The notes under the pieces were generated by a model that saw only the letters and a program-made list of their open reading frames with translations, did not search any database and was not told the DNA's origin. Both the position numbers and the translations under genes were made by a program. From assembly GCA_036149055.1 (NCBI GenBank), contig JAYZQJ010000004.1, positions 79,795 through 143,794 on the forward strand: DNA of 64,000 nucleotides, written 5' to 3'. This DNA is from Myxococcota bacterium. GTDB taxonomy: Bacteria > Myxococcota_A > Polyangia > Polyangiales > Sandaracinaceae. This document shows positions 58 to 20,257 of the stretch, in pieces. Numbering within the stretch: the first letter of the stretch is position 1; each line of letters opens with the position of its first letter.

Positions 58-1455
58 TCAGGCCGCCACGTGGCTTTTCGAGATGCCCTTCTTCTTGAGC
101 TTCTCGACCAGGGTCGTCCGGTTCATCTGGAGGATCGAGGCCGCCTGGTTCTTGTTCCAGCCGGTCCGCTCGAGCGCCTGCACGATGAGCGCGTTCTCGA
201 ACTGCTCGACCGCGTCCTTCAGGTCCAGCCCCGCCTCCGGGAGGATCGGGTTGCCGCCACCGTCGGCCGCCGCGGCGCCGCTGGCCTCGCGGATGCGCGC
301 CGGCACGTCGTCGAGGGTCAGGGTCTCCCCCTGGGCCAGGACGACCATGCGCTCGACGGTGTGGCGCAGCTGGCGGACGTTCCCGGGCCAGTCGAAGCCC
401 TGGAGGGCCGCCAGCGCCGCGTCCTCGATGCGGGTGATGTTGCGGTTCCGGCGCCGGCTCGCCTCGGTGATGAAGTGGCCGACGAGGTGGGGGATGTCTC
501 CGGGGCGCTGCCGGAGCGCGGGCAGCTCGATCCGGATCACGTCGAGCCGGTAGAGGAGGTCCTCCCGGAAGCGGCCCTTCTCGGCCATCTCCTCGACGTC
601 GCGGTGGGTCGCGGCGACCACCCGGACGTCGACCTTGTGGCTCTTGGACTCGCCGACCGGCCGGATCTCGCCCTCCTGGAGCACCCGGAGGAGCTTCGCC
701 TGGAGCGAGAGGTCCATCTCGCCGATCTCGTCGAGCAGGAGGGTGCCGCCGTCGGCGACCGCGAAGCGCCCCTTGTGCGCGCTGGTGGCCCCGGTGAAGG
801 CGCCCTTGGCGTGCCCGAAGAGCTCGCTCTCCATCAGGTTCTCGGGGATCGCGGCGCAGTTCATCGGGACGAAGGCGCCCTTGCGGCGCTCGCTCGCCCG
901 GTGGATCGCCTGCGCGACGAGCTCCTTGCCGGTCCCGGTCTCGCCGGTGATGAGCACCGAGCAGTCGGTGTCGGCGACCCGGCGCACGATGTCGAAGACC
1001 CGCATCAGGGTGGGGTCCTCGCCGATGATCTCCGGGCAGTGCTCGGTCCGCCACGCGGCCAGGTCGTCCTCGGTGGCCGGCGGCGCCGCGCCGAGGGAGC
1101 GCGCGCTCTGGACGCGCTCGAGGCTGTTGTCGAGGGCCTCGAGCGAGAAGGGCTTGGTCAGGAAGTCGTCGGCGCCGTGGCGGAGCGCGGAGATCGCGTG
1201 GTCCAGGACCGCCTGGCCGGTCATGACGATCACCGCCGCGCGGCTGGCGTGCACGTGGTCGACCACGCTGAAGCCCTGTCCGTCGGGCAGCATCACGTCG
1301 GTGAGGACGACGTCGACGTCGGGCTCCGCCTCGAGCACCTCGCGGGCCTCCTTGCAGCTGCCCGCCTCGAGGATCTCCTCGCCACGCCGGCGCAGGTGCC
1401 TCGCGAGGCTGCGCCGGAGCGTCTCTTCGTCTTCGACGATCAGGATTTTCGACAT
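58..1455 (-). CDS. Sigma-54-dependent response regulator (REC-AAA+-Fis HTH), FleQ/FlrA/FleR-like flagellar activator
   Basis: REC domain (ILIVEDE, LTDVMLPD, KPF), Walker A GETGTGKE, GAFTGA, LLLDEIGE, WPGNVRQL; HTH ending NRTTLVEKLKK resembles FleQ/FlrA RRTTLVEK. Start moved to MSKILIV behind a GGAGG. Confidence 0.92.
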   Translation of the reverse strand: MSKILIVEDEETLRRSLARHLRRRGEEILEAGSCKEAREVLEAEPDVDVVLTDVMLPDGQGFSVVDHVHASRAAVIVMTGQAVLDHAISALRHGADDFLTKPFSLEALDNSLERVQSARSLGAAPPATEDDLAAWRTEHCPEIIGEDPTLMRVFDIVRRVADTDCSVLITGETGTGKELVAQAIHRASERRKGAFVPMNCAAIPENLMESELFGHAKGAFTGATSAHKGRFAVADGGTLLLDEIGEMDLSLQAKLLRVLQEGEIRPVGESKSHKVDVRVVAATHRDVEEMAEKGRFREDLLYRLDVIRIELPALRQRPGDIPHLVGHFITEASRRRNRNITRIEDAALAALQGFDWPGNVRQLRHTVERMVVLAQGETLTLDDVPARIREASGAAAADGGGNPILPEAGLDLKDAVEQFENALIVQALERTGWNKNQAASILQMNRTTLVEKLKKKGISKSHVAA

Positions 1456-1478
1456 CGCGTGGGGCCTCCCGCCTCCAT

Positions 1479-1524
1479 GGATTTCGTCCGACACCCCGAA
1501 CGGCGGAGGTGTCGGATTTTTGAC
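1479..1524. promoter_or_regulatory. Putative activator boxes in the divergent intergenic region
   Basis: GTCGGATTTTTGAC (1511-1524, GTC-N8-GAC) and inverted repeat TCCGACACC (1487-1495)/GGTGTCGGA (1508-1516). Confidence 0.5.
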
Positions 1525-1585
1525 CCTAACCAGGATCAAAGCTGATTTCCTCAAGCTCGGCCAGCTTTCGACCGTTGACGAGGGC

Positions 1586-2668
1586 ATGAGCCGCGCGACT
1601 CTCCCGCGACCCCTGCTCGGCGACGCCTTCTCCCCGGACGCGGTCATCGAGGTGGAGGCGCTGCTCCGGCGCCAGCTCCGGCCCCACGGCTGGGTGCGCT
1701 CCGTCGAGGTCGCGACCGAGCCCGAGGCGCTGCCCGCGCCGGGCCGCGGCGATCACGCCCGCCTCCGGGTCCCGGTCGAGGCCGAGCGCGTCTGGGCCCA
1801 GATCGTCTGGGAGCCGGGCGACGGAGCCCGGGACGCGCTGGTCCGGCAGTCGGTGGAGCTGGTCGGGGCCCGCATCCGCGAGGAGGCGTGGGCCGGGGAG
1901 CAGCTCGTCCTGCGCGATCGCCTCGCCGCCCTCCGCCAGCGCATGGTCGAGCGCAACCGGATGGCCGCGCTCGGCACGATGGCCGCGAGCGTCGCCCACG
2001 ACATCCGCACCCCGCTGACCGTGCTCTTCGCCAACCTCTCCTACCTGGAGGAGGCGCTCGAGGGCCTGCAGACCGACGACTCCGAGGAGCTGCGCTCGGT
2101 CCTCGACGACAACCGCCTGGCGGTCGAGCTGATCGAGGGGGTCCTCGACTCGATGAAGACCTTCGTCGCCGACGGCGAGGCCGCCGGCCTGGTGCGGGTC
2201 GAGCAGGTGGTCGCCTCGGCGGTGCGCCTGACCCGCTGGCACTTCGGCAACGCCCAGGTGCACGTCGAGCCCCGGGTCGAGGGCGATCCGCTCGCCTGCG
2301 GCACCGTCGGCGAGGTCTGTCAGATCCTCGTCAATCTCCTGGCGAACGCCGCCGAGGCCTCCCCGCGCGGCTCGCTCGTCCGGGTGCTCGCGCGCCGGGC
2401 CGGGGAGATGACCTCCATCTTCGTCGTCGACGAGGGCCCCGGGGTCCCGCGCCGCCACCGCGACGCCATCTTCGAGGCCTTCCACACCACCAAGGCCGCC
2501 GGCATGGGCCTCGGCCTCTCGATCGCGCGCGAGATGGCCCGCCGCCACGGCGGGGAGCTCGCCCTGCTCGACGCCCCGCCCCCCGAGCTCGATCCCGCCC
2601 CCGTCGGCGCCTGCTTCGAGCTCCGCCTCCCCGCTTCCCTCCGCGCCACCCTCTTCCCTCCCGCCTGA
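1586..2668 (+). CDS. Soluble sensor histidine kinase, divergent from the activator
   Basis: H-box VAHDIRTPL, N-box NLLANA, DEGPG, FHTTK, GMGLGLSI; no evident transmembrane helix. Confidence 0.88.
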   Translation: MSRATLPRPLLGDAFSPDAVIEVEALLRRQLRPHGWVRSVEVATEPEALPAPGRGDHARLRVPVEAERVWAQIVWEPGDGARDALVRQSVELVGARIREEAWAGEQLVLRDRLAALRQRMVERNRMAALGTMAASVAHDIRTPLTVLFANLSYLEEALEGLQTDDSEELRSVLDDNRLAVELIEGVLDSMKTFVADGEAAGLVRVEQVVASAVRLTRWHFGNAQVHVEPRVEGDPLACGTVGEVCQILVNLLANAAEASPRGSLVRVLARRAGEMTSIFVVDEGPGVPRRHRDAIFEAFHTTKAAGMGLGLSIAREMARRHGGELALLDAPPPELDPAPVGACFELRLPASLRATLFPPA

Positions 2669-3570
2669 TCCCTTCGTGCTCCCTGGCTTCACCGAAGTCA
2701 GGGGAGACGGGAGAGAGGAGGCGAGGAGGAAGTGTCGCTGCGCGCCACGCGACTCCTTGCGGGGTCTCGGAGGACGGCAATTGCTCTCGCAAAGACGCAA
2801 AGCCGCCAAGGGGGTGGGTGGCGGCGGGGTGGGGGCTGGCCGCCGGGTCTCGGGCTGCGTCCGTCGAACCGGCCGTTCGAAGCGGTGGGCTCGGAGGACG
2901 GCAATTGCTCTCGCAAAGACGCAAAGCCGCAAAGGGGGTGGGTGGCGGCGGGGTGGGGGCTGGCCGCCGGGTGCCGGGCTGGATTGTCGCGTTCGGCCGG
3001 CAGGCCCGCCCAGCTATTCCTCCTCGCCTCCCACCTCCCCTCTCCCCTGCTTTCTGCGACGCCGAAGAGGGTCCTGATCCTCCGTGGTCCGTGGCTTCAC
3101 CGAAGTCGGGGGAGACGGGAGAGAGGAGGCGAGGAGGAAGTGTCGCTGCGCGCCACGCGACTCCATGCGGGGTCTCGGAGGACGGCAATTGCTCTCGCAA
3201 AGGCGCAAAGCCGCAAAGGGGGTGGGTGGCGGCGGGGTGGGGGCTGGCCGCGGGGTGCTGGGCTGGATCGTCGCGTTCGGCCGGCAGGCCCGCCTGGCTA
3301 TTCCTCCTCGCCTCCCACCTCCCCTCTCCCTGCTTTCTGCGACGCCGAAGAGGGCTCTGATCCTCCGTGGTCCGTGGCTTCACCGAAGTCGGGGGAGACG
3401 GGAGAGAGGAGGCGAGGAGGAAGTGTCGCTGCGCGACACGCGGCGATCGGGCGGCGGGGTGGGGGCTGGCCGCCGGGTGCTGGGCTGGACCGTCGCGTTC
3501 GGCCGGCAGGCCCGCCCAGCTATTCCTCCTCGCCTCCCACCTCCCCTCTCCCCTGCTTTCTGCGAGGCCG
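2666..3570. repeat. Tandem array of three composite inverted-repeat units (REP/MITE-like)
   Basis: Units start TGATCC at 2666, 3075 and 3358; each has GGAGGCGAGGAGGAA...TTCCTCCTCGCCTCC arms; unit 1 has an internal duplication and unit 3 an internal deletion. Confidence 0.9.
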
Positions 3571-3602
3571 ATGCTCTCTGCGGGCCGACGGGGAGAAGGG
3601 GT

Positions 3603-3701: not shown

Positions 3702-3717
3702 TGGCACGAGGGGTGCA
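3702..3717 (+). promoter_or_regulatory. Sigma-54 -24/-12 promoter of the flgB operon
   Basis: TGGCACGAGGGGTGCA: GG-N10-GC with consensus TGGCACG, 13 nt before the flgB start. Confidence 0.8.
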
Positions 3718-3730: not shown

Positions 3731-4129
3731 GTGATTCCCATCTTCCAGAGCGTGGCCCTGACCCACCGCGCGCTCGACTATCACCTCGAGCGCCAGAACG
3801 TCCTGGCCTCCAACGTCGCCAACGTCGACACGCCCGGCTTCCGGCCCCTCGAGCTCGTCCGGGAGGACGTGCCGACCGAGGCGCCGGGGACGCTGCGGCT
3901 CGAGACGACGCACGGGGCCCACGTGGGCCAGTCCGGCGACGCGACCCGCCCCTTCGTGCTCACCGAGTCCGAGGAGCAGGTCGTCAACCCCGGCAACGAC
4001 GGGAACGCCGTCTCGCTCGAGCGCGAGATGAGCAAGGTCGCCGCCAACAACATCCGGTACGAGGGCGCGGTTCGGATCGTCCGCAGCCAGCTCGGCCTCC
4101 TTCGCTACGCCGCCAACGACGGGCACTGA
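3731..4129 (+). CDS. flgB: Flagellar basal-body rod protein FlgB
   Basis: RQNVLASNVANVDTPGF and NDGNAVSLEREM motifs; first gene of operon. Confidence 0.93.
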   Translation: MIPIFQSVALTHRALDYHLERQNVLASNVANVDTPGFRPLELVREDVPTEAPGTLRLETTHGAHVGQSGDATRPFVLTESEEQVVNPGNDGNAVSLEREMSKVAANNIRYEGAVRIVRSQLGLLRYAANDGH

Positions 4130-4137
4130 GAGAGACG

Positions 4138-4578
4138 ATGAACTTCTTTTCCGCCATGGAGATCGCCGCCAGCGGCCTGGGCGCCCAGCGCACCCGGATG
4201 AACGTGCTCGCCAGCAACCTCGCGAACGCGCGCACCACGCGCACCGAGGACGGCCAGGGCCCGTACCGCCGCATGGACCCCGTGTTCCGGGCCGTCCCGG
4301 TCGCCGACCGCTTCGAGGAGCTGCGCGGCGACGCGCACGCCGAGAACGCGTTCGTGGTCGAGGTGCCGGAGATCCGGCAGGACGACTCGCCGCCCCAGCG
4401 CATCTACGAGCCGAGCCACCCGGACGCCGACGAGGACGGATACGTCGAGATGCCGAACGTCAACGTGGTGGAGGAGATGGTCAACATGATCACCGCCTCT
4501 CGCGCGTACGAGTCCGGCGTGACCGTCATGCAGAGCCTCAAGAGCATGGCCAAGAGCGCCATCAGCATCAGCGGCTGA
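4138..4578 (+). CDS. flgC: Flagellar basal-body rod protein FlgC
   Basis: SGLGAQRTRMNVLASNLANA, GPYRR, YEPSHPDADEDGYVEMPNVNVVEEMVNMITASRAYE. Confidence 0.96.
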   Translation: MNFFSAMEIAASGLGAQRTRMNVLASNLANARTTRTEDGQGPYRRMDPVFRAVPVADRFEELRGDAHAENAFVVEVPEIRQDDSPPQRIYEPSHPDADEDGYVEMPNVNVVEEMVNMITASRAYESGVTVMQSLKSMAKSAISISG

Positions 4579-4588
4579 GAGAAGAACG

Positions 4589-4957
4589 ATGACCGCCCCG
4601 ATCAGCAACGACATGACGAGCTTCGCCGCGACGCTCCAGCGCGCCGACGCCACGGTGCAGACGCGCGAGGCGCGGGCGCCGCAGGCCGACTCGCTGCGGA
4701 TCGGCGACGGAACCCAGACCGTCCAGGCCCCCGAGGGCCCGAGCTTCGGGGAGCGCGTGGAGCAGCTCCTCGAGCAGACCAACCAGGTGCAGGTCAACGC
4801 CGAGCAGGCCGCCGAGTCCTACGCGAACGGCACCCGGAACGACATGCACGGGACGATGATCGCGCTCGAGCAGGCCGACATCAGCTTCCGCCTCGTCAGC
4901 AACATTCGCAGTCGCCTCGTCGACGCCTACCGCGAAGTCATGCGGATGGGAGCCTGA
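4589..4957 (+). CDS. fliE: Flagellar hook-basal-body protein FliE
   Basis: SFGE..., MHGTMIALEQADISFRLVSNIRSRLVDAYREVMRM; lies between flgC and fliF. Confidence 0.93.
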   Translation: MTAPISNDMTSFAATLQRADATVQTREARAPQADSLRIGDGTQTVQAPEGPSFGERVEQLLEQTNQVQVNAEQAAESYANGTRNDMHGTMIALEQADISFRLVSNIRSRLVDAYREVMRMGA

Positions 4958-4960
4958 TCG

Positions 4961-6655
4961 ATGGACCAGGTGAAGGAGCGGCTCAAGGCCCTCGAGGAGA
5001 AGTGGAAGGCGCTGAACGCGCGCGTCCGCATCGGCATCCTGGCCGGCGCCGGCGTGCTCGTGGCGGGCGCCATCCTCTTCTTCGCGCACGGCTCGAGCCC
5101 CGACTACGGGATCCTCTTCTCGAACCTCTCGCAGGAGGACGCGGCCCGGATCGTCGAGCGCCTCCGCGCGATGAACGTGGACTACGAGCTCGCCGAGGGC
5201 GGCGGCACCATCCTCGTCCCCGACGCGAGCGTGCACGAGACGCGGCTCACCCTGGCCAACGAGGGGCTCCCGAGCGGCGGCGGCGTGGGCTTCGAGCTCT
5301 TCGACACCCAGCGCTTCGGCGAGAGCGACTTCTCCGAGCAGGTGCAGTTCCGCCGCGCGCTCGAGGGCGAGCTCGCCCGGACCATCCGCCACCTCGCCGG
5401 GGTCGAGAGCGCCCGCGTGCACCTCGTGCTCCCCGAGCGGCGGCTCTTCACCACCGACGAGAGCGAGGCGAGCGCCTCGGTCGCGCTCCACATGAACCCG
5501 GGCTGGCGCCTCCGCGAGGACCAGGTCCAGGGCGTGCAGCACCTCGTCGCCTCGAGCGTGCAGGGGCTCTCGCCCTCGAACGTCACCGTGGTCGACGGCG
5601 ACGGTCGCCCCCTCAGCGAGCAGGGCGGCGGCGCGGGCGAGGGCGTCTCGGACGCCGAGGATCTCCGCCGCCAGATCGAGCAGGGCAAGCAGCGCGCGGT
5701 GCAGCAGCTCCTCGACGCCTCGCTCGGGCCGGGCGTCGCCGTCGTGCGGGTCAGCGCCGAGGTCGACATGTCGCGGGTCGAGGATCTCCAGGAGACCTAC
5801 GACCCCGACCGCATCGCGACCCGCAGCTTCGAGGTCACCGAGGAGCGCACGGCGGACGCCGAGGGCGACGCGCAGGGCATCCCGGGCGCCGCCTCGAACC
5901 TGCCGGGCGGGCCCGCCGCCGAGGCGACCGCCGGCGAGAGCGCGGCCGGGCGCCGCCACGAGCGCCGCAACTACGAGGTCACCAAGACGGTGCGCCGCCA
6001 GGTGCGCCCGGTCGGCCGGCTCTCGCGCCTCACCGTCGCGGTGGTCGTCGACGGCACCTGGACCGGCGAGGGCGACGGGCGCAGCTACACCGAGCGCGAC
6101 GCCGACGAGCTCGCGCGCATCCGCTCGCTGGTGGCCACCGCCGCCGGCATCAGCGCCGAGCGCGGCGACGAGGTCACGGTCGAGAACGTGCCCTTCGCCG
6201 GCTCGCAGGACGTGCCCGCCGCGCACCCGAGCGACTTCATCGCCGTCTACGAGCCGTGGCTGCCCTACGCGGCCGGCGCGGCGCTCTTCCTGCTGGCCCT
6301 GATCGGCGGCGTCATCCTCTGGCTGCGACGCAAGCGGAAGAAGAAGGAGCGCGAGCAGGAGGAGAAGCTCCGCGAGCTCGAGGCCCGGGCGGCCGGCCAG
6401 GAGGTCGACTCCGACGACCCCGACGCCCTGCCGGCTCCCACCCCGGTCGCCGAGCTCGGCGCGGGCGAGGAGGACGACTTCGAGGGCTACGAGGGCGACG
6501 TCGAGGCGGTGCTCGCCGACTACGAGCAGCTCCGGGTGCTCGCCCTCGAGGTGGCCCGGCGCGACCCCGAGCTGGCGGCCCGCGTGGTGCGCGGCTGGCT
6601 CGCCGATGACGTGAAGGCGCAGAAGAAGGACGACGCGTCCAAGGAGGCAGCGTGA
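4961..6655 (+). CDS. fliF: Flagellar MS-ring protein FliF
   Basis: Two TM segments, GVGFELFD, RALEGELARTI, ARVHLVLP, GIPGAASN, NYEV, RLTVAVVVDG. Confidence 0.96.
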   Translation: MDQVKERLKALEEKWKALNARVRIGILAGAGVLVAGAILFFAHGSSPDYGILFSNLSQEDAARIVERLRAMNVDYELAEGGGTILVPDASVHETRLTLANEGLPSGGGVGFELFDTQRFGESDFSEQVQFRRALEGELARTIRHLAGVESARVHLVLPERRLFTTDESEASASVALHMNPGWRLREDQVQGVQHLVASSVQGLSPSNVTVVDGDGRPLSEQGGGAGEGVSDAEDLRRQIEQGKQRAVQQLLDASLGPGVAVVRVSAEVDMSRVEDLQETYDPDRIATRSFEVTEERTADAEGDAQGIPGAASNLPGGPAAEATAGESAAGRRHERRNYEVTKTVRRQVRPVGRLSRLTVAVVVDGTWTGEGDGRSYTERDADELARIRSLVATAAGISAERGDEVTVENVPFAGSQDVPAAHPSDFIAVYEPWLPYAAGAALFLLALIGGVILWLRRKRKKKEREQEEKLRELEARAAGQEVDSDDPDALPAPTPVAELGAGEEDDFEGYEGDVEAVLADYEQLRVLALEVARRDPELAARVVRGWLADDVKAQKKDDASKEAA

Positions 6656-7731
6656 CCAACGCAGCGGACGTCGAGGCGAGCGCGGACGAGCTGCTGGCCA
6701 AGAACGGGCTGGCCCGGATCAAGGTCGACCGGAAGGCGCTGAAGCGCCTCAGCGGCGCGGAGAAGGCGCTGCTCTTCCTGGTCAGCCTCGACGAGTCGAT
6801 CGCGACCCGCATCCTCGGCCACCTCGGCGACGACGAGGTCAAGCTCCTGCGCGACTCCTCGTCGGCCATGACCGAGGCCCCGCCGAAGGCGATCAAGGCG
6901 GTGCACCACGAGTTCCTCGAGCGCGTGCGGCAGGGCATGCCGGCGAGCCTCAAGGGCTCGAGCGCCTACCTCCGCCGCCTCGCGGGCAACGCGCTCGGCG
7001 AGGGGCGCGCGTCGGAGCTCTGGAGCGACAAGCCCAAGAGCGAGGGCGCGGCCGCGCTCGCGAAGCTCGAGACCGGCGTGCTCCAGGCGCTGCTCGACGC
7101 GGAGCAGCCGCAGACGGTGGCCATCGTGCTCTCGCAGCTCCCGGCGGCGAAGGCGTCCGAGATCATCGAGAAGATGGAGGCGAGCCGTCGTCAGGACGTC
7201 ATGCTTCGCCTCGCGCAGCTCGAGAGCATCCCCGAGGCGGTGTTCCGCGACATCGAGCAGGCCTTCCAGGTGCACGTCGAGGCGCTCGCCGAGGTGCAGC
7301 GCCGCGAGATCCCCGGCAAGAAGTCGGCGGCCGACATCGTCAAGCGCCTGCCGGCCGAGATCGGCGAGGAGCTGCTCGAGGCGCTCCGCAGCGCGAGCCA
7401 GGACGCGGCCGACGCCATCGAGAAGGCGCTCTTCACCTTCGAGGACCTCTGCCGGGTCGACAGCCGCGGCATGCAGCAGCTCCTCAAGGAGGTCGCGACC
7501 GACCAGCTCACCCTCGCCCTCAAGACGGCGAGCGACGAGCTCAAGGAGAAGGTCTTCGGCAACATCTCGAGCCGCGCGGCGGACCTGCTGCACGAGGAGC
7601 TCGAGCTGATGGGCCCGGTCAAGCTCAGCGACGTGGAGGAGGCCCAGCAGGGCATCATCCAGATCGCGCTCGACCTCGAGAAGGACGGCCGGATCGCCAT
7701 CGCGCGCGAGGGCGGGGGCGACTATGTCTGA
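6652..7731 (+). CDS. fliG: Flagellar motor switch protein FliG
   Basis: EQPQTVAIVLS (EHPQ motif), LFTFEDL, NISSRAADLLHEELELMGPVKLSDVEEAQ. Confidence 0.95.
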   Translation: MTNAADVEASADELLAKNGLARIKVDRKALKRLSGAEKALLFLVSLDESIATRILGHLGDDEVKLLRDSSSAMTEAPPKAIKAVHHEFLERVRQGMPASLKGSSAYLRRLAGNALGEGRASELWSDKPKSEGAAALAKLETGVLQALLDAEQPQTVAIVLSQLPAAKASEIIEKMEASRRQDVMLRLAQLESIPEAVFRDIEQAFQVHVEALAEVQRREIPGKKSAADIVKRLPAEIGEELLEALRSASQDAADAIEKALFTFEDLCRVDSRGMQQLLKEVATDQLTLALKTASDELKEKVFGNISSRAADLLHEELELMGPVKLSDVEEAQQGIIQIALDLEKDGRIAIAREGGGDYV

Positions 7732-7752
7732 GCGCCCTGACGGGAGGCCGGC

Positions 7753-8538
7753 GTGAGCGCGAAGGCCTTCACCTTCCCGGTCGTCGAGCGGAGCGAGGCG
7801 AAGCCCGCGTGGATCGACGCCAGGCCGGCGCCGGTGCGCAAGCTCGCCTTCGCGCACGTGGACGCGGCGCGGCCGGCGGCCCCGGAGGCGCCGAAGAAGC
7901 CGGTCTCGGTCGTGCCGCCGCCGCAGCCGGTCGCGGCGACGCCTCCGCCTCCCCCCGCGGCGCCCGCGCCCGACACCCGGGTGATCCTCGAGCAGCTCGA
8001 GGCGGAGCTCCGCGCGGAGATCGACGTCGAGATGGAGAGGGCGCGCGCCGAGCTGTCGGCGATGCGCGACGCGCTCGAGGCCGAGCGCAAGGATCTCGAG
8101 GAGCAGAAGGCTCGCTTCGTCCAGGGCGCGGTCGAGCTCGCCGCCGCCCGACAGCTCGCGTTCGGCGAGGCGGAGGAGCCCCTCCTCGAGCTCGCCTGCG
8201 GGGTGGCCGAGGCCATCGTGGGCGACGCGCTCGAGCGGCAGTCGGAGCTGTGGACCGCGTTCGCGCGGGCCGCGCTCGAGAGCCTCGACGACGCGAACGG
8301 GGCCAAGCTCCGGGCCGGCGCCGACGCCTACGCCGCGATCCTCGACGCGCTCGGCGCTCCGGAGATCACCTACCGCGGCGTGCGGGTGCCGGTGGTCGTC
8401 GACCCGACCCTCGACGGGCTCGGCTGCGTGGCCGAGGTCGGCCGCGCGAAGGTCGACGGACGCCTCTCCGAGCGCCTCGAGGCGGTGCGCGACGCGCTGA
8501 TCCACGAGCGCCGCCGGGTGAAGGGAGAGTCGGCGTGA
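7753..8538 (+). CDS. fliH: FliH-like flagellar export protein (divergent)
   Basis: Between fliG and fliI; coiled coil, LELACGVAEAIV and C-terminal DPTLDGLGCVAE...VDGRLSERL. Confidence 0.75.
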   Translation: MSAKAFTFPVVERSEAKPAWIDARPAPVRKLAFAHVDAARPAAPEAPKKPVSVVPPPQPVAATPPPPPAAPAPDTRVILEQLEAELRAEIDVEMERARAELSAMRDALEAERKDLEEQKARFVQGAVELAAARQLAFGEAEEPLLELACGVAEAIVGDALERQSELWTAFARAALESLDDANGAKLRAGADAYAAILDALGAPEITYRGVRVPVVVDPTLDGLGCVAEVGRAKVDGRLSERLEAVRDALIHERRRVKGESA

Positions 8539-12299: not shown

Positions 12300-13598
12300 A
12301 TGACCATCATGAAGTCCCTGAACACCGCCTCCTCGGGCATCCGCAGCCACAGCGAGGCGCTCTCGGTCGTCGGCGACAACATCGCCAACGTGAACACGGT
12401 CGGATACAAGCGCTCGCGCGCGAACTTCCAGGACATGCTCGGGCGCAGCATCGCCGGCTCGAGCGCGATGCCGCAGGCCGGCGCCGGCAGCCGCGTGGGC
12501 AGCATCCAGCAGATGTGGGCGCAGGGCGCCTTGCTCACCACCGACTCGCCGACCGACCTCGCGCTCAACGGCTCCGGGTTCTTCGTCGTCAGCGGCAACG
12601 TCGGCGGCGTCGACGGCAGCTTCTACACGCGGGCCGGCCAGTACACGCTCGACAGCGAGGGTTACCTCGTCAACCAGGACGGCCTGCGCCTGCAGGGCTA
12701 CCCGGCCGACGACACCGGCGCGCTGAGCGGCACGCTCGGAGACCTGCAGGTCGAGCAGGGCACCATCGGGGCCAACGCCACCACGAGCGTCGACGTCGGC
12801 GCGAACCTCGACGCCGAGACCGCGGTGCGGACCGACGCCTGGGATCCCACCGACCCGGCCGGCACGAGTGACTTCTCCTCGAACGTCACCGTGTACGACT
12901 CGCTCGGCAACGCGCACGAGGTGACCGTCTACTATCGCAAGACCGGCGCGAACAGCTGGGAGTGGCACGCGATGGCGGACGGCGCCGAAGTCACCGGCGG
13001 CACCCCGGGCACGCCCTTCGAGGGCGCGAGCGGCACCCTGACCTTCACCACCGACGGCCAGCTCGACACCGAGACCACCAGCGCCTCGAGCTGGGACTTC
13101 GTCGACGCGACCCCCGGCCAGGCGGTCACCTTCGACTTCGGCGACTCGATCACCACCGACTCGGGCACCGGCATGAGCGGGACCACCCAGTACGCCTCGC
13201 CCTCCACCAACACCGGCATCAGCCAGGACGGCTACGGCGCCGGCGAGGTCGCGGGCATCTCGATCGGGCAGGACGGAACCATCGAGGGGGTGTTCACCAA
13301 CGGCCAGCGCCGGGTCCTCGGGCAGGTCGCGGTCGCGGACTTCGCGAGCGTCGACGGCCTCGAGCGGGCCGGGCAGGGCCTCTGGGTCGAGACCCAGGCC
13401 AGCGGCGAGGCGGTGGTCGGCGCGGCCGGCACCGGCGGGCGCGGCGCGGTGGTGGCGGGGGCCCTCGAGGGCAGCAACGTCGACCTCGCGCGCGAGTTCG
13501 TCGACCTCATCGCCTACCAGCGCGGGTTCTCCGCCAACAGCCGCATCGTCAGCACCGCCGACGAGATGTACACGGAGCTGGTCAACCTGAAGCGGTGA
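12300..13598 (+). CDS. flgE: Flagellar hook protein FlgE
   Basis: GDNIANVNTVGYK, DLALNGSGFF, YTRAGQY, YDSLGNAH, LEGSNVDLAREFVDLIAYQRGFSANSR. Confidence 0.97.
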   Translation: MTIMKSLNTASSGIRSHSEALSVVGDNIANVNTVGYKRSRANFQDMLGRSIAGSSAMPQAGAGSRVGSIQQMWAQGALLTTDSPTDLALNGSGFFVVSGNVGGVDGSFYTRAGQYTLDSEGYLVNQDGLRLQGYPADDTGALSGTLGDLQVEQGTIGANATTSVDVGANLDAETAVRTDAWDPTDPAGTSDFSSNVTVYDSLGNAHEVTVYYRKTGANSWEWHAMADGAEVTGGTPGTPFEGASGTLTFTTDGQLDTETTSASSWDFVDATPGQAVTFDFGDSITTDSGTGMSGTTQYASPSTNTGISQDGYGAGEVAGISIGQDGTIEGVFTNGQRRVLGQVAVADFASVDGLERAGQGLWVETQASGEAVVGAAGTGGRGAVVAGALEGSNVDLAREFVDLIAYQRGFSANSRIVSTADEMYTELVNLKR

Positions 13599-13654: not shown

Positions 13655-14185
13655 GTGCGGCGGAGAAGAGCAGGGTTCACGCTGGTGGAGCTGATGTCGG
13701 TGGTCACGATCGTCGGCATCCTCGCCGCGCTCGCCATCCCGAGCTTCGTCAGCTACTCGCGGCGGGCTCGGACCAGCGAGGCGACGACGATGCTCGGCGA
13801 CCTCTACCACCACGCGGCGAGCTACTACGTCGCCGAGTACCCGCCCGGGCGCTCGGCGCCGCAGACCTTCTCGGGCTGCGTGGTGGACTCGGCCGGCCCG
13901 CTGCCCGCCGTCCCCCGCGGCGTCGCCGCCTACCCGGACTGGGAGTCGGATCCCAGCTTCAGCGGGCTCGGCTTCGCGAGCGGCGGGGCGCTCCGCTACG
14001 GCTACGAGATCGTCTCGGTCGGAGGCTGCCGGCACGGGGCCGGCGAGGCCCTCTACAGCTTCCGCGCGATCGGCGACCTCGACGGCGACGGCGCGACCAG
14101 CCTCTTCGAGGTCGCGGCCGGCTCGAACTCGGACAACGTGCTGATGCGCACGCCCGGGCACTACGTCGAGTCGGCGCTCGAGTAG
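13655..14185 (+). CDS. Type IV pilin-like protein
   Basis: Class III signal RRRRAG/FTLVELM..VTIVGILAALAIPSF, ARTSEA, C-terminal AIGDLDGDG. Confidence 0.88.
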   Translation: MRRRRAGFTLVELMSVVTIVGILAALAIPSFVSYSRRARTSEATTMLGDLYHHAASYYVAEYPPGRSAPQTFSGCVVDSAGPLPAVPRGVAAYPDWESDPSFSGLGFASGGALRYGYEIVSVGGCRHGAGEALYSFRAIGDLDGDGATSLFEVAAGSNSDNVLMRTPGHYVESALE

Positions 14186-15102
14186 CGGTCCTCGAGGGCC
14201 CAGGCGAAGAGCCCGCACATCACGAAGCCGTGCGCGTTCGCGTAGCCGTGCGTGCGCAGCATCCACTGGATGCCGATCAGGCGGTGCCCGGTCGCCTCGC
14301 CCCACGCGTAGGCCAGCGCGAGCGGCATCGAGAGCAGCAGGGAGGCGCCGCTGACGAGCAGCAGCACCCGCGAGACGGCGCGGCGAGGCCGCCGCCAGAC
14401 CCACCCGAGGGTCAGCCCGGCGACGAGGAGCAGCGCGCCGGCGAGCAGCGCCGTGCCGGCCAGCGCGAGCCACGGCGACGAGGTGATGCCGATCGCGACG
14501 ATCGGCTGCGCGGCCACCGCGGCCAGCGCCGCGCCCAGGGCCAGCCGGCGGCGTCGCCCTTCGAGCGCGAGGCCGGCGCGGACCGCGAGGATCGGGGCGG
14601 CCACCGCGGCGAAGTGGAAGTGGACGCCGGTAAGCGCGACGATCAGCGGGTCGAAGTCGAGGGGGCGCGCGCCGACCCGAGACAGCAGCAGCCACCCCGC
14701 GCCCACCGGCAGGTAGGCGAGCGCGAGCCCGGTCGCGAGCGTGTCCAGCCGCCGCAGCCCGCCCGCGAGCACCCGGCCGAGCCCGAGGAGCGCCACCAGG
14801 ATGGCGAAGCTGACCCAGGCCGCCGCCCACGCGCCCGCCTCGAGCGAGACCGGCAGGGAGAGGGCGACCACCGCGGCCGCGCCGCACAGGGGCTGGGCGA
14901 TCGCGGCGAGGTCGACGAGCCGGCTCTCGCGGGCGAGGGGCGCGACCGCGAGCGCCAGCGGCGCGACGCCGAGCACGGCGAGGGCGAGGACCCGGCTGAT
15001 CGCGTCGGCGCCGACGAACCGGAGCCCGATGGAGAGCGCGACCCCCAGCCCGGCGCTGACCAGGAGGAGAGTGCGGGTGCGACGACCGGCGAGCTTCGGC
15101 AC
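14161..15102 (-). CDS. YndJ-like multi-pass membrane protein
   Basis: Many TM helices; IVALTGVHFHFA and WMLRTHGYANAHGF motifs. Start uncertain (GTG 15102 or ATG 15120). Confidence 0.75.
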   Translation of the reverse strand: MPKLAGRRTRTLLLVSAGLGVALSIGLRFVGADAISRVLALAVLGVAPLALAVAPLARESRLVDLAAIAQPLCGAAAVVALSLPVSLEAGAWAAAWVSFAILVALLGLGRVLAGGLRRLDTLATGLALAYLPVGAGWLLLSRVGARPLDFDPLIVALTGVHFHFAAVAAPILAVRAGLALEGRRRRLALGAALAAVAAQPIVAIGITSSPWLALAGTALLAGALLLVAGLTLGWVWRRPRRAVSRVLLLVSGASLLLSMPLALAYAWGEATGHRLIGIQWMLRTHGYANAHGFVMCGLFAWALEDRYSSADST

Positions 15103-15130
15103 CCGCGGAGAATGCGTCATTCTCGGGCGG

Positions 15131-16099
15131 ATGCACTGGATGGATCTGGAGCCCGCCCACGCGCGCCTGGCGCTGGGGGCGATGCGGGCGGTGGCGGGGG
15201 CGGACGGTGAGCTCGCGGAGGCGGAGCGCGGCCTGCTCGAGGCCGCGGGGCGGCTGCTCGAGATCGACCCCGAGGTGCCCCCGCTGACCCCGGCGGCGCT
15301 GGCGAGCGCGGGGCTGGCCGGCCGGGACGCCGAGCGGGTGGTGCAGGCGGGCATCCTCGCGGCCCTGCTCGACGGCCGGATCGACCCGGCCGAGGTGGAG
15401 GTGGTGCGCGCCCTGGCGTCGGCGGCCGGGGTCGACGAGCCCCGGGTCCACAACCTCGCCCAGATCGCGAAGGGGAGGGTGCGGCTCGCCTGGCTCGACC
15501 TGGCCCGGCGCTCGTTCGCCCGGGACGTCTTCGTCGACGCGCTGAAGCGCGAGGGGCCCCGCGGGGTCTGGAAGATCGTGGGCCCCATGCTCGGCCGGGC
15601 CGTCGATTCGGCCCTCGCGGCCCGCTACATCGCGCTCGGCGAGCTGCCCGAGGGCACCCTCGGTCACGCCTACTTCCGCTTCGTCTACGAGAACGGGCTC
15701 GGCTTCCCGGGTGAGAAGGGCGCGGTGCCCGAGTCGGGCGTCTGGCACGACGTCAGCCACGTGCTCGGCGGGTATGGCGTCGCGCCCCGGGAGGAGGTCG
15801 AGGTGGTGTCCTTCATCGCCGGCTTCACCCGCGAGGACCCGTTCTTCTGGGTCTTCACCATCACGCTGCAGTTCCACCTCGGGATGCGTGTCTCGCCGTA
15901 CTCGCAGGGGGGCGTCGGGCTCGTGGACCCGGCCCGCATGCTCGGCGCCTTCGCGCGGGGCGCGGCGATGACCGAGGACCTCTCGGTGGACGGCTGGGAT
16001 CCGTGGCCCTGGTTCCCCGAGCAGCTCGAGGCGGTCCGGGCGCGCTTCGGCGTGCGTCAAGCGCCTGACCTCGGGCCCGCCGGAGCGCCGGAGGGCTGA
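15131..16099 (+). CDS. TerB-like/Coq4-like fusion protein
   Basis: N-terminal ADGELAEAE and LDGRIDPAE TerB-type repeats; C-terminal LPEGTLG and HDVSHVLGGY...EE Coq4-type metal motif. Confidence 0.65.
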   Translation: MHWMDLEPAHARLALGAMRAVAGADGELAEAERGLLEAAGRLLEIDPEVPPLTPAALASAGLAGRDAERVVQAGILAALLDGRIDPAEVEVVRALASAAGVDEPRVHNLAQIAKGRVRLAWLDLARRSFARDVFVDALKREGPRGVWKIVGPMLGRAVDSALAARYIALGELPEGTLGHAYFRFVYENGLGFPGEKGAVPESGVWHDVSHVLGGYGVAPREEVEVVSFIAGFTREDPFFWVFTITLQFHLGMRVSPYSQGGVGLVDPARMLGAFARGAAMTEDLSVDGWDPWPWFPEQLEAVRARFGVRQAPDLGPAGAPEG

Positions 16100-16100
16100 C
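16056..16100 (+). promoter_or_regulatory. Putative enhancer boxes for the fliL operon
   Basis: GTCAAGCGCCTGAC (16056-16069) and GCCGGAGGGCTGAC (16087-16100), overlapping the 3' end of the upstream CDS. Confidence 0.55.
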
Positions 16101-16153
16101 GCCGAGGCCGCCGGATCACGTCCGAGCCCCTCCCTGCAGGCCTCGGAGAGCGA

Positions 16154-16169
16154 TGGCACGGTCGGTGCT
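16154..16169 (+). promoter_or_regulatory. Sigma-54 -24/-12 promoter of the fliL operon
   Basis: TGGCACGGTCGGTGCT: GG-N10-GC, followed by CTAGCTC exactly as at flgB. Confidence 0.8.
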
Positions 16170-16184
16170 CTAGCTCTCGTCGCG

Positions 16185-16679
16185 ATGGCCGACGACAAGC
16201 AAGACACCGAGGAGCAGCCCGCGCCGAGCGGCGGCGGGAAGAGCACCCTCATCATCGTGCTCGTGGTGACCAACCTGCTCGTGGTGGCGGGCGCCGCCGG
16301 CGCGGTGGTCATGACGATGGGCAGCCAGCCGGCCGCGACCGCGGAGGCGGCCGAGCCCACGGGGAGCGGCCGCGAGGTCGGCCCCCTGCTCGAGCTCTCG
16401 GCGCTGGTGGTCAACCTCGAGGACCCCAACGGGACGCACTACCTGCGGGCGGGCTTCCAGATGGAGATCCGCGACGCCGAGCGGCAGGCCGAGGTGGAGA
16501 CCCGCCTCGTCCCGCTCCGCTCCGCCGTCCTCCTGCACCTCAGCGGCAAGTCGATGGACGAGGTCGTCGGGCAGGAGAACCGCGCCGCCATCCTCGAGGA
16601 GCTGACCGAGCTCGCCAACGAGCAGATCGGCGGCGACCTCGTGCGCGCCGTCTACTTCACGGAGTTCGTCGTCCAGTAA
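16185..16679 (+). CDS. fliL: Flagellar basal-body-associated protein FliL
   Basis: N-terminal TM, LVVNLED..HYLR, C-terminal VYFTEFVVQ. Confidence 0.93.
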   Translation: MADDKQDTEEQPAPSGGGKSTLIIVLVVTNLLVVAGAAGAVVMTMGSQPAATAEAAEPTGSGREVGPLLELSALVVNLEDPNGTHYLRAGFQMEIRDAERQAEVETRLVPLRSAVLLHLSGKSMDEVVGQENRAAILEELTELANEQIGGDLVRAVYFTEFVVQ

Positions 16680-16694
16680 GGGCGGAGCCGCGCG

Positions 16695-17678
16695 ATGTTC
16701 GAAGAGCCGTCCATGGAAGAGCCCCTGCTCAGCGACGAGGAGACCAGCGCGCTCCTCGACGCGATGCGGGAGGAGGAGACGCGAGGGGAGGTCGAAGCCA
16801 AGAAGACCGACCTCGGCTCCCCCGAGGGCCCGATGCGCGACGCGCTGGGCCGGGCGGACGCGGCGGCCATCCAGCTCGGGCGGGCGGCGCGCACGCAGCT
16901 CCTCAAGCAGACCGCGCGCGGCATGGACGTCGAGCTGCTCCCCGCCGAGATCGTGCCGCGGGACGTGCTCACCTCCTCGATCGACCCGCACGCGCTGCTG
17001 TTCACGGTGCGCTCCCGCGGCGAGGCGCTCGGCGTGGTCGCGCTCGACTCGAACCTCGGCCGCTCGGTGCTCGAGCGCTGCATGGGCGCGCCGGAGTCGA
17101 GCGGTGAGGCGGCGGCGCCCGGCGGCGCGCTGAGCGAGCTCGACCGACGCATCCTCCGCCCCTTCCCGGCGGCGGTGGTCGAGGCGCTCGGAGAGACCTT
17201 CCTCCGCGGCCGGCCCCTCACCCTCGAGGACCACGACGACGCCGACGACGGCGGGGTGCGCTTCGAGCCGATGCTCCGCCTGGGCCTGCGGTTCTCGAAC
17301 GGCGGCCAGCGCGCGGGCGAGCTGCTCCTCGCCCTGACCGCGGCCGCGGTGACGAGCGCGTGCCCCAAGCAGCAGGCGGCCCGCGAGGCGCTGCAGAAGA
17401 AGAAGGAGGAGGCGCCCCGCGCGAAGGACCTCCTCGTCGAGAAGATCGCCGGCGCCGAGGTGGACCTGATCGCGGTCCTCGGGCGCGCCCCCTCGAGCGT
17501 GCGCGACCTGCTCGCGCTCCAGACGGGCGACGTGCTGCGGCTCAGCGGCGCGCCCGGTGACCCCGTCGCGCTCTGCATCGAGGACGTGGTCCTCGGGCAC
17601 GGCAACCCGGTCGTCCACAAGGGCGACCTCGCGATCGAAGTGACCTCCAGAGAATCGAAGGGACGGCAGACGTCATGA
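16695..17678 (+). CDS. fliM: Flagellar motor switch protein FliM (divergent)
   Basis: N-terminal LLSDEETSALL (cf. LSQxEIDALL), LSELDRRI, C-terminal SpoA domain (LLALQTGDVLRL); between fliL and fliN. Confidence 0.8.
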   Translation: MFEEPSMEEPLLSDEETSALLDAMREEETRGEVEAKKTDLGSPEGPMRDALGRADAAAIQLGRAARTQLLKQTARGMDVELLPAEIVPRDVLTSSIDPHALLFTVRSRGEALGVVALDSNLGRSVLERCMGAPESSGEAAAPGGALSELDRRILRPFPAAVVEALGETFLRGRPLTLEDHDDADDGGVRFEPMLRLGLRFSNGGQRAGELLLALTAAAVTSACPKQQAAREALQKKKEEAPRAKDLLVEKIAGAEVDLIAVLGRAPSSVRDLLALQTGDVLRLSGAPGDPVALCIEDVVLGHGNPVVHKGDLAIEVTSRESKGRQTS

Positions 17679-18034
17679 GTGAGCTCAGCATGGAATCTCT
17701 CGGCTTCGGCGCGAGCTCGCCCGAAGAGGCCCCCGCCGCGGCGCCGACCCCCGAGCGGTCGCACGACCTCGACCGGATCCTCGAGATCCCGCTCGACATC
17801 CACGTCGAGCTCGGGCGTCGCAAGATGCGCATCCACGAGCTGCTCGAGCTGGACGTCGGCTCGGTCCTGGAGCTCGGCACCCCGGCGGGCACCCCGCTCA
17901 GCATCTACGCGAACAAGGTGCTCGTCGCTCAGGGCGAGGCCGTCATCGTCGGCGAGCGCTACGGCGTCCGCATCACCGACATCGTCCCCGCGAGCGAGCG
18001 CGTCCGCCGCCTCGGCGGGAAGGAGGGCTTCTGA
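17675..18034 (+). CDS. fliN: Flagellar motor switch protein FliN
   Basis: ILEIPLDIHVELGR, GSVLEL, AQGEAVIVGERYGVRITDI. Confidence 0.94.
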   Translation: MSELSMESLGFGASSPEEAPAAAPTPERSHDLDRILEIPLDIHVELGRRKMRIHELLELDVGSVLELGTPAGTPLSIYANKVLVAQGEAVIVGERYGVRITDIVPASERVRRLGGKEGF

Positions 18035-19155
18035 TGAAGCAGCGAATCGCCACCCTCGCCCTCGCCCTGCTCGCCGTGCCGAGCGCCGCGTCGGCGAACA
18101 CCATCACCGACGCGCGCGCCGACCTCGGCGAGGAGACCTACGAGCTCCGCGTGCAGGCCGAGGCGGACCTCGGAGAGCCGCGCATCCGCACCTCGCCCGG
18201 CTTCGTCCGGGTGTGGTTCCCGGGCATGAACAGCGTGAGCCTCGACCGGGACGGCGACGGCGCGGCCATCCGCTTCGTCCGCATCCGCCCCGGCTACGAG
18301 GACACCGCGGTGACCATCATCCGGCTCGGCGACATGCGTCGCCTCTCCGCCGACGAGGTCGTGGTGACCCGCGACGGCCCGGTGGCCCGGATCTCCATCC
18401 CGCGCGCCGCCTTGCCCCAGGTCGCGGCGATCGCGGCGGCCGAGACCGCGGCCCCCGCGCCGGTCGAGGCCCGCCAGGCGGAGCCCGCGTCGGCCGAGGC
18501 GTCCCCGGAGCCGGCCGCCGAGCCCGAGGCCGTCGAGGCGGAGGAGGAGGCGTCCGCGCCGCCGCTCGCGCTCACCCGGTCGAGCGACGCCCAGCCGCTG
18601 CCCGCGTCGGACGGTCCGAGCACGACCGTCATCCTGCTCGTCCTGACCCTGCTGCTCGGCGGCGGCTACCTGGCGCTCCGCACGGTGCAGAAGAAGATCG
18701 GCAAGGCCGGCCCGCGCCGCGACATCGACATCATCGCCCAGAAGCGGATCGGCGGGAAGCACCAGCTCCTCGTGGTCCGGGCGCTCGGCGAGGATCATCT
18801 GCTGGCGGTCCACGCCGGCCGCACCGAGAAGATCGCCTCGATGCCGGCGCCCCGCGGCGGCGACGAGGGCGGCGGCGAGCTCTCCGAGGAGAGCGACCTG
18901 CTCCCCTTCCTGCGCCTCGGCGCGGGGGAGGACGAGGAGCGCCCGCAGACGCTGCACCGCGCGTCGAGCCGCAAGAAGGTCGAGGATCGCCCGCGCTTCG
19001 GCGCCGAGCTGATGAAGCTGGTCGGAGACCGCGGCCGCGCCGACAGCGTGAGCCTCAGCGGCGGCCTCGGCGGAGGCCTCGGCGGTGGGGCGGCGTCGGC
19101 GCCCAGCGAGGCCGTCGCCGGCCTGCTCCGCCTCCGCGAGAAGCTCGGGCGCTGA
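18034..19155 (+). CDS. fliO: FliO family protein with long N- and C-terminal extensions
   Basis: Signal peptide, exported domain, TM, then IDIIAQKRIGGKHQLLVVRALGEDHLLAV FliO core; between fliN and fliP. Confidence 0.75.
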   Translation: MKQRIATLALALLAVPSAASANTITDARADLGEETYELRVQAEADLGEPRIRTSPGFVRVWFPGMNSVSLDRDGDGAAIRFVRIRPGYEDTAVTIIRLGDMRRLSADEVVVTRDGPVARISIPRAALPQVAAIAAAETAAPAPVEARQAEPASAEASPEPAAEPEAVEAEEEASAPPLALTRSSDAQPLPASDGPSTTVILLVLTLLLGGGYLALRTVQKKIGKAGPRRDIDIIAQKRIGGKHQLLVVRALGEDHLLAVHAGRTEKIASMPAPRGGDEGGGELSEESDLLPFLRLGAGEDEERPQTLHRASSRKKVEDRPRFGAELMKLVGDRGRADSVSLSGGLGGGLGGGAASAPSEAVAGLLRLREKLGR

Positions 19156-19172
19156 GCCAGAGGAAAGACGTC

Positions 19173-19988
19173 ATGAAGAGCCCGCGTCACAGCGTCCGCG
19201 CCGCCTGGGTGAGCTTCGCGCTCGCCCTCGGGGTCTGCGGGGCCACCCTCGCGCCGGCCTTCGTGGCGCCCGCGATCGCGTCCGCGCAGAGCCAGGACGA
19301 CGCCACGGTGACCCCGCCGGGGAGCGTGACCGTCACCCTCCCGGATCTCGAGGAGCCCGACCAGATGGTGCCGGCGCTCAAGATCCTGGTGCTGATGACG
19401 GTGCTGAGCCTGGCGCCGGCCATCCTCATCTCGATGACGAGCTTCACCCGCATCGTCATCGTGCTCAGCTTCGTGCGGCAGGCGGTCGGCACCCAGAACG
19501 TGCCCCCGATGCAGGTGATCCTCTCGCTCTCGCTCCTGCTGACCGCGGTGGTGATGGCGCCGATCTTCCATCGCGTTCAGGTGGAGGCGCTCGACCCCTA
19601 CGAGGCCGAGCAGATCGACGGCGACGAGGCCTGGGAGCGCGGCTCCGACATCATGCGCGGCTTCCTCATCCGGCAGACCCGCGAGGACGACCTGCTGCTC
19701 TTCTACGAGCTCAGCCAGACCGACCGCCCCGCCGACCTGAGCGACGTCTCGCTCCACCTCCTGGTGCCCGCCTTCATGATCAGCGAGCTGCGCACCGGCT
19801 TCGAGATGGGCTTCCTGCTCTTCCTGCCGTTCGTGCTCGTCGACCTGATCACCGGCAGCGTCCTGACCTCGATGGGCATGGTGATGCTCCCGCCGACGAT
19901 GGTCTCGACCCCGCTCAAGATCTTGCTCTTCGTCCTGGTGGACGGATGGGCCCTCCTCACCCGCTCACTCGTGGCCTCGTTCGCATGA
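19173..19988 (+). CDS. fliP: Flagellar export gate protein FliP
   Basis: MTSFTRIVIVLS, PAFMISEL, MGMVMLPP, KILLFVLVDGW; N-terminal signal peptide as in flagellar FliP. Confidence 0.95.
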   Translation: MKSPRHSVRAAWVSFALALGVCGATLAPAFVAPAIASAQSQDDATVTPPGSVTVTLPDLEEPDQMVPALKILVLMTVLSLAPAILISMTSFTRIVIVLSFVRQAVGTQNVPPMQVILSLSLLLTAVVMAPIFHRVQVEALDPYEAEQIDGDEAWERGSDIMRGFLIRQTREDDLLLFYELSQTDRPADLSDVSLHLLVPAFMISELRTGFEMGFLLFLPFVLVDLITGSVLTSMGMVMLPPTMVSTPLKILLFVLVDGWALLTRSLVASFA

Positions 19989-20257
19989 CCCCCTCCATCG
20001 GGCTCGACTGGATCCGCGAGACGATGTGGACCGCGGTGGTCGCCGGCGCGCCGGTGATCCTGACGGTGGCCATCATCGGGCTCGCGCTCGCCATCCTGCA
20101 GGCCGCCACGCAGGTCAACGACGCGGCGGTCCCGTTCGCGGCCAAGGCCATCGGCGTGTTCGTCGCGCTGACGATGACCGGGGCGTGGATGCTCGGGCAG
20201 ATGACCGACTTCGCGGAGAGCGCCTTCGAGGCGATGGCCCGCGTCACCGGCGGTTGA
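19985..20257 (+). CDS. fliQ: Flagellar export gate protein FliQ
   Basis: 90 aa, GLALAILQAATQVNDAAVPFAAK. Confidence 0.88.
   Translation: MTPSIGLDWIRETMWTAVVAGAPVILTVAIIGLALAILQAATQVNDAAVPFAAKAIGVFVALTMTGAWMLGQMTDFAESAFEAMARVTGG

Follow-up and report, generated by a model that had tools for sequence, protein, structure and literature searches.

A 2018 review describes myxobacteria as lacking flagella (PMC6164225). In Anaeromyxobacter dehalogenans 2CP-C, however, a full flagellar set is encoded in a 55.7-kb cluster, which was judged to be ancestral rather than transferred, and strain K has been seen swimming; on the basis of this one genome, Thomas et al. (2008) suggested that the common ancestor had been flagellated (PMC2330069). 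Myxobacteria also possess a non-flagellar type III secretion system (T3SS) whose export gate, ATPase and C-ring are homologous to the flagellar ones (Abby and Rocha 2012, PMC3459982). Murphy et al. (10.1101/2021.07.06.451402) reported flagellar assembly genes in metagenome-assembled genomes (MAGs) of two uncultured lineages, flagellin expression was found in pooled predator MAGs of Myxococcota and Bdellovibrionota (PMC11937823), and a 2026 preprint counts Myxococcota among the motile phyla (10.64898/2026.06.16.732483). In their accessible portions, to which our statements on all these sources and on PMC10374538 below are limited, the last three give no family counts and no inheritance test and name no flagellated Sandaracinaceae; PMC11821767, PMC10576062 and PMC12316311 added nothing on myxobacterial flagella. 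We found no published flagellar-gene count across Polyangiales and no report on Sandaracinaceae in a search that covered the subscription literature thinly; an existing survey of how flagella were lost across the tree may already contain such counts. Here we analyzed a 64,000-nucleotide stretch of a Sandaracinaceae genome (the window), whose first third contains a flagellar hook-basal-body locus. We consider it probable that this locus supplies the hook and basal body for a flagellum that is complete and of the ordinary kind, that descends from a flagellated ancestor and that continues to serve movement in liquid.

The window (C4:79795-143794) belongs to a MAG of 9.89 Mb in 289 contigs (G000; 96% complete, contamination estimate 1.41%), placed in the family Sandaracinaceae, order Polyangiales. 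NCBI taxonomy lists Sandaracinaceae within Polyangiales and Myxococcota. Among 38 named loci compared, the five nearest FliG loci are 73-80% identical and titled Sandaracinaceae (4) or Polyangia (1). In a search of five genomes, three titled Sandaracinaceae encode an RpoB with 89-91% identity to that of the host; identity is 83% in a genome titled Polyangiales and likewise 83%, over a partial match, in one titled Sandaracinus sp., these names being the depositors' record titles. In the RpoB tree the genome is nested within its GTDB family with a support of 100/99. The RpoB evidence stands independently of the flagellar genes, and the host assignment that an earlier note had made from the letters of the window is thus borne out.

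The window contains 17 flagellar genes in two blocks, flgB-flgE (3731-13598) and fliL-fliQ (16185-20257), in the order flgB flgC fliE fliF fliG fliH fliI fliJ fliK flgD flgE and fliL fliM fliN fliO fliP fliQ (Table 1). All are open and match a flagellar Pfam or NCBIfam model, FliK and FliO only weakly (near the cut-offs) and backed by position, and the canonical order is as the earlier note had stated. Its claim of translational coupling applies to about half of the junctions within the blocks: 6/15 overlap by 1-4 nt, and the other nine are close-packed with gaps of 3-24 nt, the choice of the fliN start being relevant here, as an earlier start at 17675 gives a seventh overlapping junction. The span 58-20257, outlined there as a hook-basal-body locus, does hold these genes, but also an activator, a kinase, a repeat array and three non-flagellar genes. 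The model scores of FliF and FliP, together with the rod and hook genes, FliE and FliL, which have no injectisome counterpart, identify the locus as flagellar rather than injectisome, as had been proposed; FliP lies above the flagellar cut-off and not above that for SctR. The N-terminal motif of FliM is presumably CheY-binding-like. The long AMIN-FliO form has already been described for Myxococcota (PMC12248157).

The window itself contains only the hook-basal-body half. Genes for the filament, the rings, the stator and the larger part of the export gate lie on contigs other than C4, and profile searches across the genome recovered the parts that the earlier note had proposed to look for (fliC, flgK/L, fliD, flgFGHI, flhAB, fliR, motAB) on C259, C132, C183 and C281. 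The complete flagellum comprises about 40 genes over five contigs, all of them open, and every structural layer is covered: the rod and hook set (flgB, C, D, E, F, G, fliE, and fliK just below its cut-off), the MS and C rings (fliF, G, M, N), the L and P ring genes (flgH, flgI, flgA), the export apparatus (flhA, flhB, fliP, Q, R and fliH, I, J, with the FlhB NPTH motif at 265), junction, filament and cap (flgK, flgL, fliC, fliD), and a stator pair with the conserved aspartate. The matches for flgN and fliT lie just below cut-off. Both flagellins on C183 are 285 aa long and 84% identical to each other. Compared by description with Anaeromyxobacter, a small anaerobic member of another lineage with one cluster and embedded chemotaxis genes, the host is a 9.9-Mb marine member of the Polyangiales with its flagellar genes in five pieces, in which fliJ, flgN, fliT, flgA, flgJ and fliK are detected.

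Table 1. Flagellar genes and neighbouring elements, in window coordinates for contig C4, and gene content of the four other flagellar contigs.
Feature	Location	Strand	Basis
Receiver + sigma-54 AAA+ activator + Fis HTH	58..1455	-	Pfam; GAFTGA at 218
Histidine kinase, divergent from activator	1586..2668	+	same place in G018, G016, L049
Dispersed intergenic repeat array, inverted arms, not flagellar	2637..3571	.	genome-wide BLAST
Sigma-54-type promoter (GG-N10-GC) ahead of flgB	3702..3717	+	motif match
flgB, proximal rod	3731..4129	+	TIGR01396 above cut-off
flgC, proximal rod	4138..4578	+	TIGR01395 above cut-off
fliE	4589..4957	+	PF02049, TIGR00205
fliF, MS ring	4961..6655	+	TIGR00206 303.6 bits vs SctJ 72.9
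fliG, rotor/switch	6652..7731	+	FliG N, M, C domains; PDB FliG alignments
fliH	7753..8538	+	PF02108
fliI, export ATPase	8535..9848	+	TIGR03496 580.5 bits, SctN 548.9, both below cut-off; Walker A at 165
fliJ	9845..10279	+	PF02050
fliK, hook-length control, weak match	10276..11454	+	PF02120 29.6 bits (cut-off 29.8); position
flgD, hook cap	11460..12275	+	Pfam + NCBIfam
flgE, hook	12300..13598	+	Pfam + NCBIfam
Non-flagellar insert: type IV pilin-like (+), YndJ-like (-, 14161-15102), TerB-like (+, 15131-16099)	13655..16099	.	
Sigma-54-type promoter ahead of fliL	16154..16169	+	motif; matching site before fliL in G018
fliL	16185..16679	+	PF03748
fliM	16695..17678	+	NCBIfam
fliN	17675..18034	+	Pfam + NCBIfam
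fliO, long form, AMIN-like N-terminal part	18034..19155	+	PF04347 22.9 bits; Atlas structure leads TM 0.52-0.71
fliP	19173..19988	+	TIGR01103 above cut-off
fliQ	19985..20257	+	Pfam + NCBIfam
fliR flhB flhA flhF fleN fliA flgF flgG	C259		
flgA flgH flgI flgJ flgM flgN flgK flgL + csrA-fliW fusion	C132		
fliC1 fliC2 fliD fliS fliT; maf, NeuB and cytidylyltransferase genes nearby	C183		
FleN-like gene (fleN2), motA, motB, diguanylate cyclase (after motB)	C281		

We compared the stator pair to structurally characterized motors. Its best PDB hits are PomA and PomB (8BRI, 8ZYV), and residues linked in Vibrio PomAB to sodium selectivity or to contact with the rotor (PMC10374538) are kept in the host alignment: the sodium-site threonines (PomA T158, T185, T186), the charged PomA residues R88, E96 and D114, and PomB D24. 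PomA R232 is not kept. From these residues, the host flagellum is probably sodium-driven. Two stator types occur in the family: seven flagellated genomes of the window's subclade encode the PomAB type with the sodium threonines, and eight of the other subclade encode a proton-type MotAB, 22-29% identical to host MotA. PomA-like stators were also seen at two loci outside the family (67-72%), so that in Sandaracinaceae the proton type may have replaced the sodium type. Six of the seven MotA/ExbB matches in the host genome were rejected as stators, being TolQ/ExbB/AglR-like. G006, a family genome of 82% completeness in which full FliG was not detected, also has a PomAB-like pair (L270), which points to either an orphan stator or missing contigs.

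Flagellar hierarchies of the sigma-54/sigma-28 kind are known to use a two-component activator (FlgRS, FleRS, FlrBC). The host resembles them by layout: activator and kinase genes adjoin flgB, basal-body operons carry sigma-54 sites, FliA and FlgM are encoded along with FlhF and FleN, and filament genes have sigma-28-like sites. The activator is likely a dedicated flagellar regulator, its best match lying directly upstream of flgB in seven other loci, and the divergent kinase is likely its partner. A strict sigma-54 pattern was found within 45 nt upstream of 17 of the 8109 called genes; five of these 17 belong to the flagellar cluster (flgB, fliL, fliR, flgA and the first gene of the neu operon). 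Upstream of flgM, fliC1, fliC2, fliD, fleN2, motA and the cheA gene of C227 there is a sigma-28-like motif, and genome G018, from the same genus, shows it before its flagellins and fliD. The standard sigma-28 pattern matched only motA and fleN2, and the looser one used here, drawn from these genes, matched 25 of 8109 upstream regions, equal to the chance rate, so that only its clustering on late flagellar genes counts. Unlike in the known hierarchies, csrA and fliW are fused in one 199-aa open reading frame (ORF) after flgL, followed by pilT (L020:1421-2020, C132, minus strand); matches to the fused ORF were also seen in G013 and G022. FlgJ on the same contig (L020:4895-6118, minus strand) is 407 aa long and has a rod-binding domain, with no hydrolase domain recognised in its long C-terminal part. 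On C183, neuB, SIS, cytidylyltransferase, pyruvyl transferase and methyltransferase genes (L018:324-7278) are divergent from maf, and each side has a sigma-54-type site, as in G018; the neu/maf genes probably serve flagellin glycosylation.

The chemotaxis cluster on C227 (cheA-cheW-mcp-cheB-cheR) co-occurs with the flagellum. Its CheA type is present in 14/15 flagellated genomes of the family and in 0/17 others, best hits reaching at most 307 bits in the latter vs at least 418 in the genomes that have it. In the CheA tree, the six sampled non-flagellated genomes carry the C136 type, and the C227 sequences were not recovered as a single clade. The host genome encodes eight CheA-like proteins and seven MCP-domain matches, among which only the C227 cluster tracks the flagellum. 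PilB scores above its cut-off, and the host likely encodes Agl/Glt-like gliding genes, as judged from profile matches below cut-off. The search for an AglRQS-type motor turned up a TolQ gene with two ExbD-like genes on C22, whose matches were to TolQ/ExbB models only.

We propose the following sequence of events. The kinase and sigma-54 activator adjoining flgB would switch on the sigma-54 operons (flgB, fliL, fliR, flgA). The finished hook-basal body would then export FlgM, freeing FliA to transcribe the two flagellins, fliD, motAB and the chemotaxis cluster. The PomAB-type stator would turn FliG with sodium ions, CheY-P bound to FliM setting the direction of rotation. The flagellum is probably polar, as suggested by FlhF/FleN, and would be steered by the C227 cluster. 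The cell probably alternates swimming with surface movement, using type IV pili and the Agl/Glt-like gliding genes, and non-flagellated relatives would have lost the system several times.

Could the organelle be built yet find its main use on surfaces, in swarming, in adhesion, in sensing of the surface or in contact with prey, instead of in free swimming? A pilin-like gene lies within the cluster, pilT follows csrA-fliW, a diguanylate cyclase follows motB, and the DNA occurrences of the flagellins include invertebrate gut metagenomes. We nevertheless regard this use as improbable, because stator, switch, FlhF/FleN and the co-occurring chemotaxis cluster are all kept, and because flagellin DNA, found in seawater, marine and invertebrate-gut metagenome runs, comes mostly from seawater. 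The retention of filament, cap, stator and switch also speaks against the repurposed organelle considered in the earlier note.

We looked for expression in public RNA data. Six RNA runs from three studies contain 59-85% of the flagellin-region words (24 runs listed). Contigs of three RNA runs (X15, X17, X18) and one DNA run were compared with the first 20 kb of C183. RNA contigs extend over both flagellins and into fliD in 3/3 RNA runs. An RNA contig starts at 11715 in X15 and at 11701 in X18, just past the sigma-28-like site before fliC1 (about 11666-11692, hand-counted), whereas a single contig of the DNA run, spanning 5663-20000 of the flagellin stretch, runs through that site; this is a weak hint at most. 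Hardly any contigs of X15 and X18 fall on the kinase block (7.3-11.3 kb of L018), which is covered in X17; this is evidence neither way.

We next turn to spread and inheritance. Full-length FliG is present in 14/32 family genomes, the host included. A raw tally of 19/32 was set aside because it includes five genomes without a flagellum that have weak FliG_C matches only (E 1e-9 to 1e-13); in the host, such a match belongs to a separate 250-aa protein (C59:7091-7843), which resembles FliG_C over part of its length and is encoded outside any flagellar locus. G023 (88% complete), with flagellin and MotA and no FliG hit, brings the flagellated family genomes to 15; G029, marked as unpublished, was included as one of the 17 non-flagellated ones and as one row of the RpoB trees, and none of our conclusions rests on it. 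G027, a family member in a single contig of 10.3 Mb, gave no FliG, flagellin or MotA match. Within Polyangiales, FliG was found in 116/301 and flagellin-family genes in 123/301 genomes (at least 85% complete), and within the phylum FliG was found in 177/401 and FliE in 180/401 genomes (at least 90% complete); these are counts of single genes, not full sets, in sampled species representatives, mostly MAGs, and kin are not independent. Core flagellar genes thus occur in about 40-45% of the genomes searched in order and phylum, contrary to the rarity implied by the earlier note. Its premise that cultured myxobacteria are non-flagellated gliders is partly wrong in view of Anaeromyxobacter, and its surprise is overstated: flagella were already known in the phylum and are common in its genomes.

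FliG and RpoB trees of 61 genomes have 30/58 splits in common (shuffled mean 0.21, maximum 2), and 18/23 FliG splits with support of at least 0.95 are present in the RpoB tree. Patristic distances correlate with a rho of 0.80 over 43 order members, and both trees divide the family into the same two subclades. Monophyly of FliG in family and order was not rejected (p-AU 0.43 and 0.33), which is no proof of a clade; supports are from FastTree, and p-AU values from a rapid IQ-TREE analysis limited to 65 of the 100 rows, with near-duplicates and most outgroups dropped. The flagellar trait changes six times on an RpoB tree of 19 family genomes and four outgroups, and we infer from the FliG/RpoB congruence that these changes are losses. 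These trees and counts together suggest that the flagellum was inherited and repeatedly lost, swimming probably being ancestral.

Several points weigh against inheritance and present-day use in liquid. Swimming is deduced from genes, and even in A. dehalogenans 2CP-C, which carries such genes, it is not commonly observed (PMC2330069). The RNA evidence concerns the flagellin region of C183, its runs were picked by the flagellin stretch and assessed by contigs only, and X17 covers all 30 bins, so that DNA carry-over is possible. The promoter patterns were derived from the same genes, which makes their enrichment partly circular. FliG and RpoB are single-gene trees, 5/23 well-supported FliG splits conflict with RpoB, and the two stator types of the family mean that at least motAB was replaced once. 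As to alternation with gliding, GltG matched over its full length at 447 bits vs a cut-off of 650, and GltJ at 54 bits vs 450.

The flagellar system is long-resident in the host lineage, as the earlier note had suggested it might be. Third-position GC content (GC3) is 0.964 in the 40 flagellar-cluster genes vs 0.958 in 7612 others, and codon usage correlates with r = 0.994. G018 has the same order of kinase, flgB-flgE, three-gene insert, fliL-fliQ and the same kinase after fliQ; the order is continuous across 20.3 kb, so the junction there is not chimeric. In 21 genes compared with G018 (16/17 window genes and five filament genes), no stops were found and dN/dS was 0.03-0.51, compared with 0.08-0.31 for three rpoB-region genes; these are Nei-Gojobori values, rough at a GC3 of 0.96, and fliK was dropped by the coverage filter. 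The flagellar genes are thus under purifying selection. Together with the FliG/RpoB congruence, these results answer the checks on selection and tree agreement suggested in the earlier note in favor of residence.

A cryptic, decaying relic on its way to the loss seen in relatives would fit with 17/32 family genomes lacking full FliG and, where searched, flagellin, and with a host cluster in five pieces. G024, by comparison, keeps flgB to flgJ as one block, and the five-piece layout is thus probably derived. New sigma-54 sites head the separated pieces, however, and the absence of stops, a dN/dS well below 1 and flagellin contigs in RNA runs make decay very unlikely. A non-rotating secretion device derived from a flagellum, like the myxobacterial T3SS, is hardly credible: such systems exist in Myxococcales and the FliI score is near that of SctN, but they lack FlgBCDEK, FliEG, FlgH and MotAB (PMC3459982), that is rod, hook, FliE/G, L ring and stator, all present here, and the only FHIPEP gene of the genome scores above the FlhA cut-off, not SctV, so that gene content largely refutes this idea. 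Recent horizontal gain or binning contamination can be dismissed for the window, for although C259 stands out by its tetranucleotide composition (rank 120 of 126 contigs of similar length) in a 289-contig assembly, its genes have counterparts with 66-87% identity in family member G025, the composition of the other four contigs is unremarkable, G018 has the same order with both flanks, the nearest FliGs are from the family, estimated contamination is low, and the independent DNA run covers 5663-20000 of the flagellin stretch in one contig.

With an inherited, working flagellum as our preferred explanation, we lean towards a wider view in which swimming is ancestral and still common in Myxococcota (about four in ten species-level genomes, large-genomed, gliding and piliated Polyangiales included), in which lineages of the soil lost the flagellum repeatedly and the flagellum-free image reflects the resulting culture bias, and in which the Sandaracinaceae subclades differ by a sodium stator and its proton replacement. 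The machine itself is ordinary; what counts is its owner and how widely it occurs, and its prevalence, its inheritance and the stator split are so far under-described. Anaeromyxobacter has so far been treated as an exception, and the present counts and trees extend the flagellated ancestor to Polyangiales. Where the losses fall, whether they are linked to a move into soil, and how a single cell divides control between flagellum, pili and gliding motor can now be tested. Marine myxobacterial predators have been reported to be active in seawater (PMC11937823); a flagellum, if used as proposed, would explain how they get to prey or particles, and a swimming, gliding and piliated predator would represent a new myxobacterial life cycle. 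It would be worth watching for swimmers when marine myxobacteria are cultured.

Other elements of the window include the non-flagellar insert, which is the same in G018, partial in G025 and missing between flgE and fliL in G024. In other bacteria, motAB often occupies the place between flgE and fliL that is taken here by the pilin-like, YndJ-like and TerB-like genes. Another TerB-like gene lies at 23830-24363. The repeat array yields 218 and 58 BLAST pieces of at least 40 nt across the genome, sitting on 39-89 contigs, and is shorter or absent at this position in G018. Further downstream, the window encodes a Ser/Thr kinase with a PEGA domain (43603-45384), confirming a clue to the host in the earlier note, an amidase_2 protein (45998-47620) and an RPE65-family carotenoid oxygenase (54924-56396).

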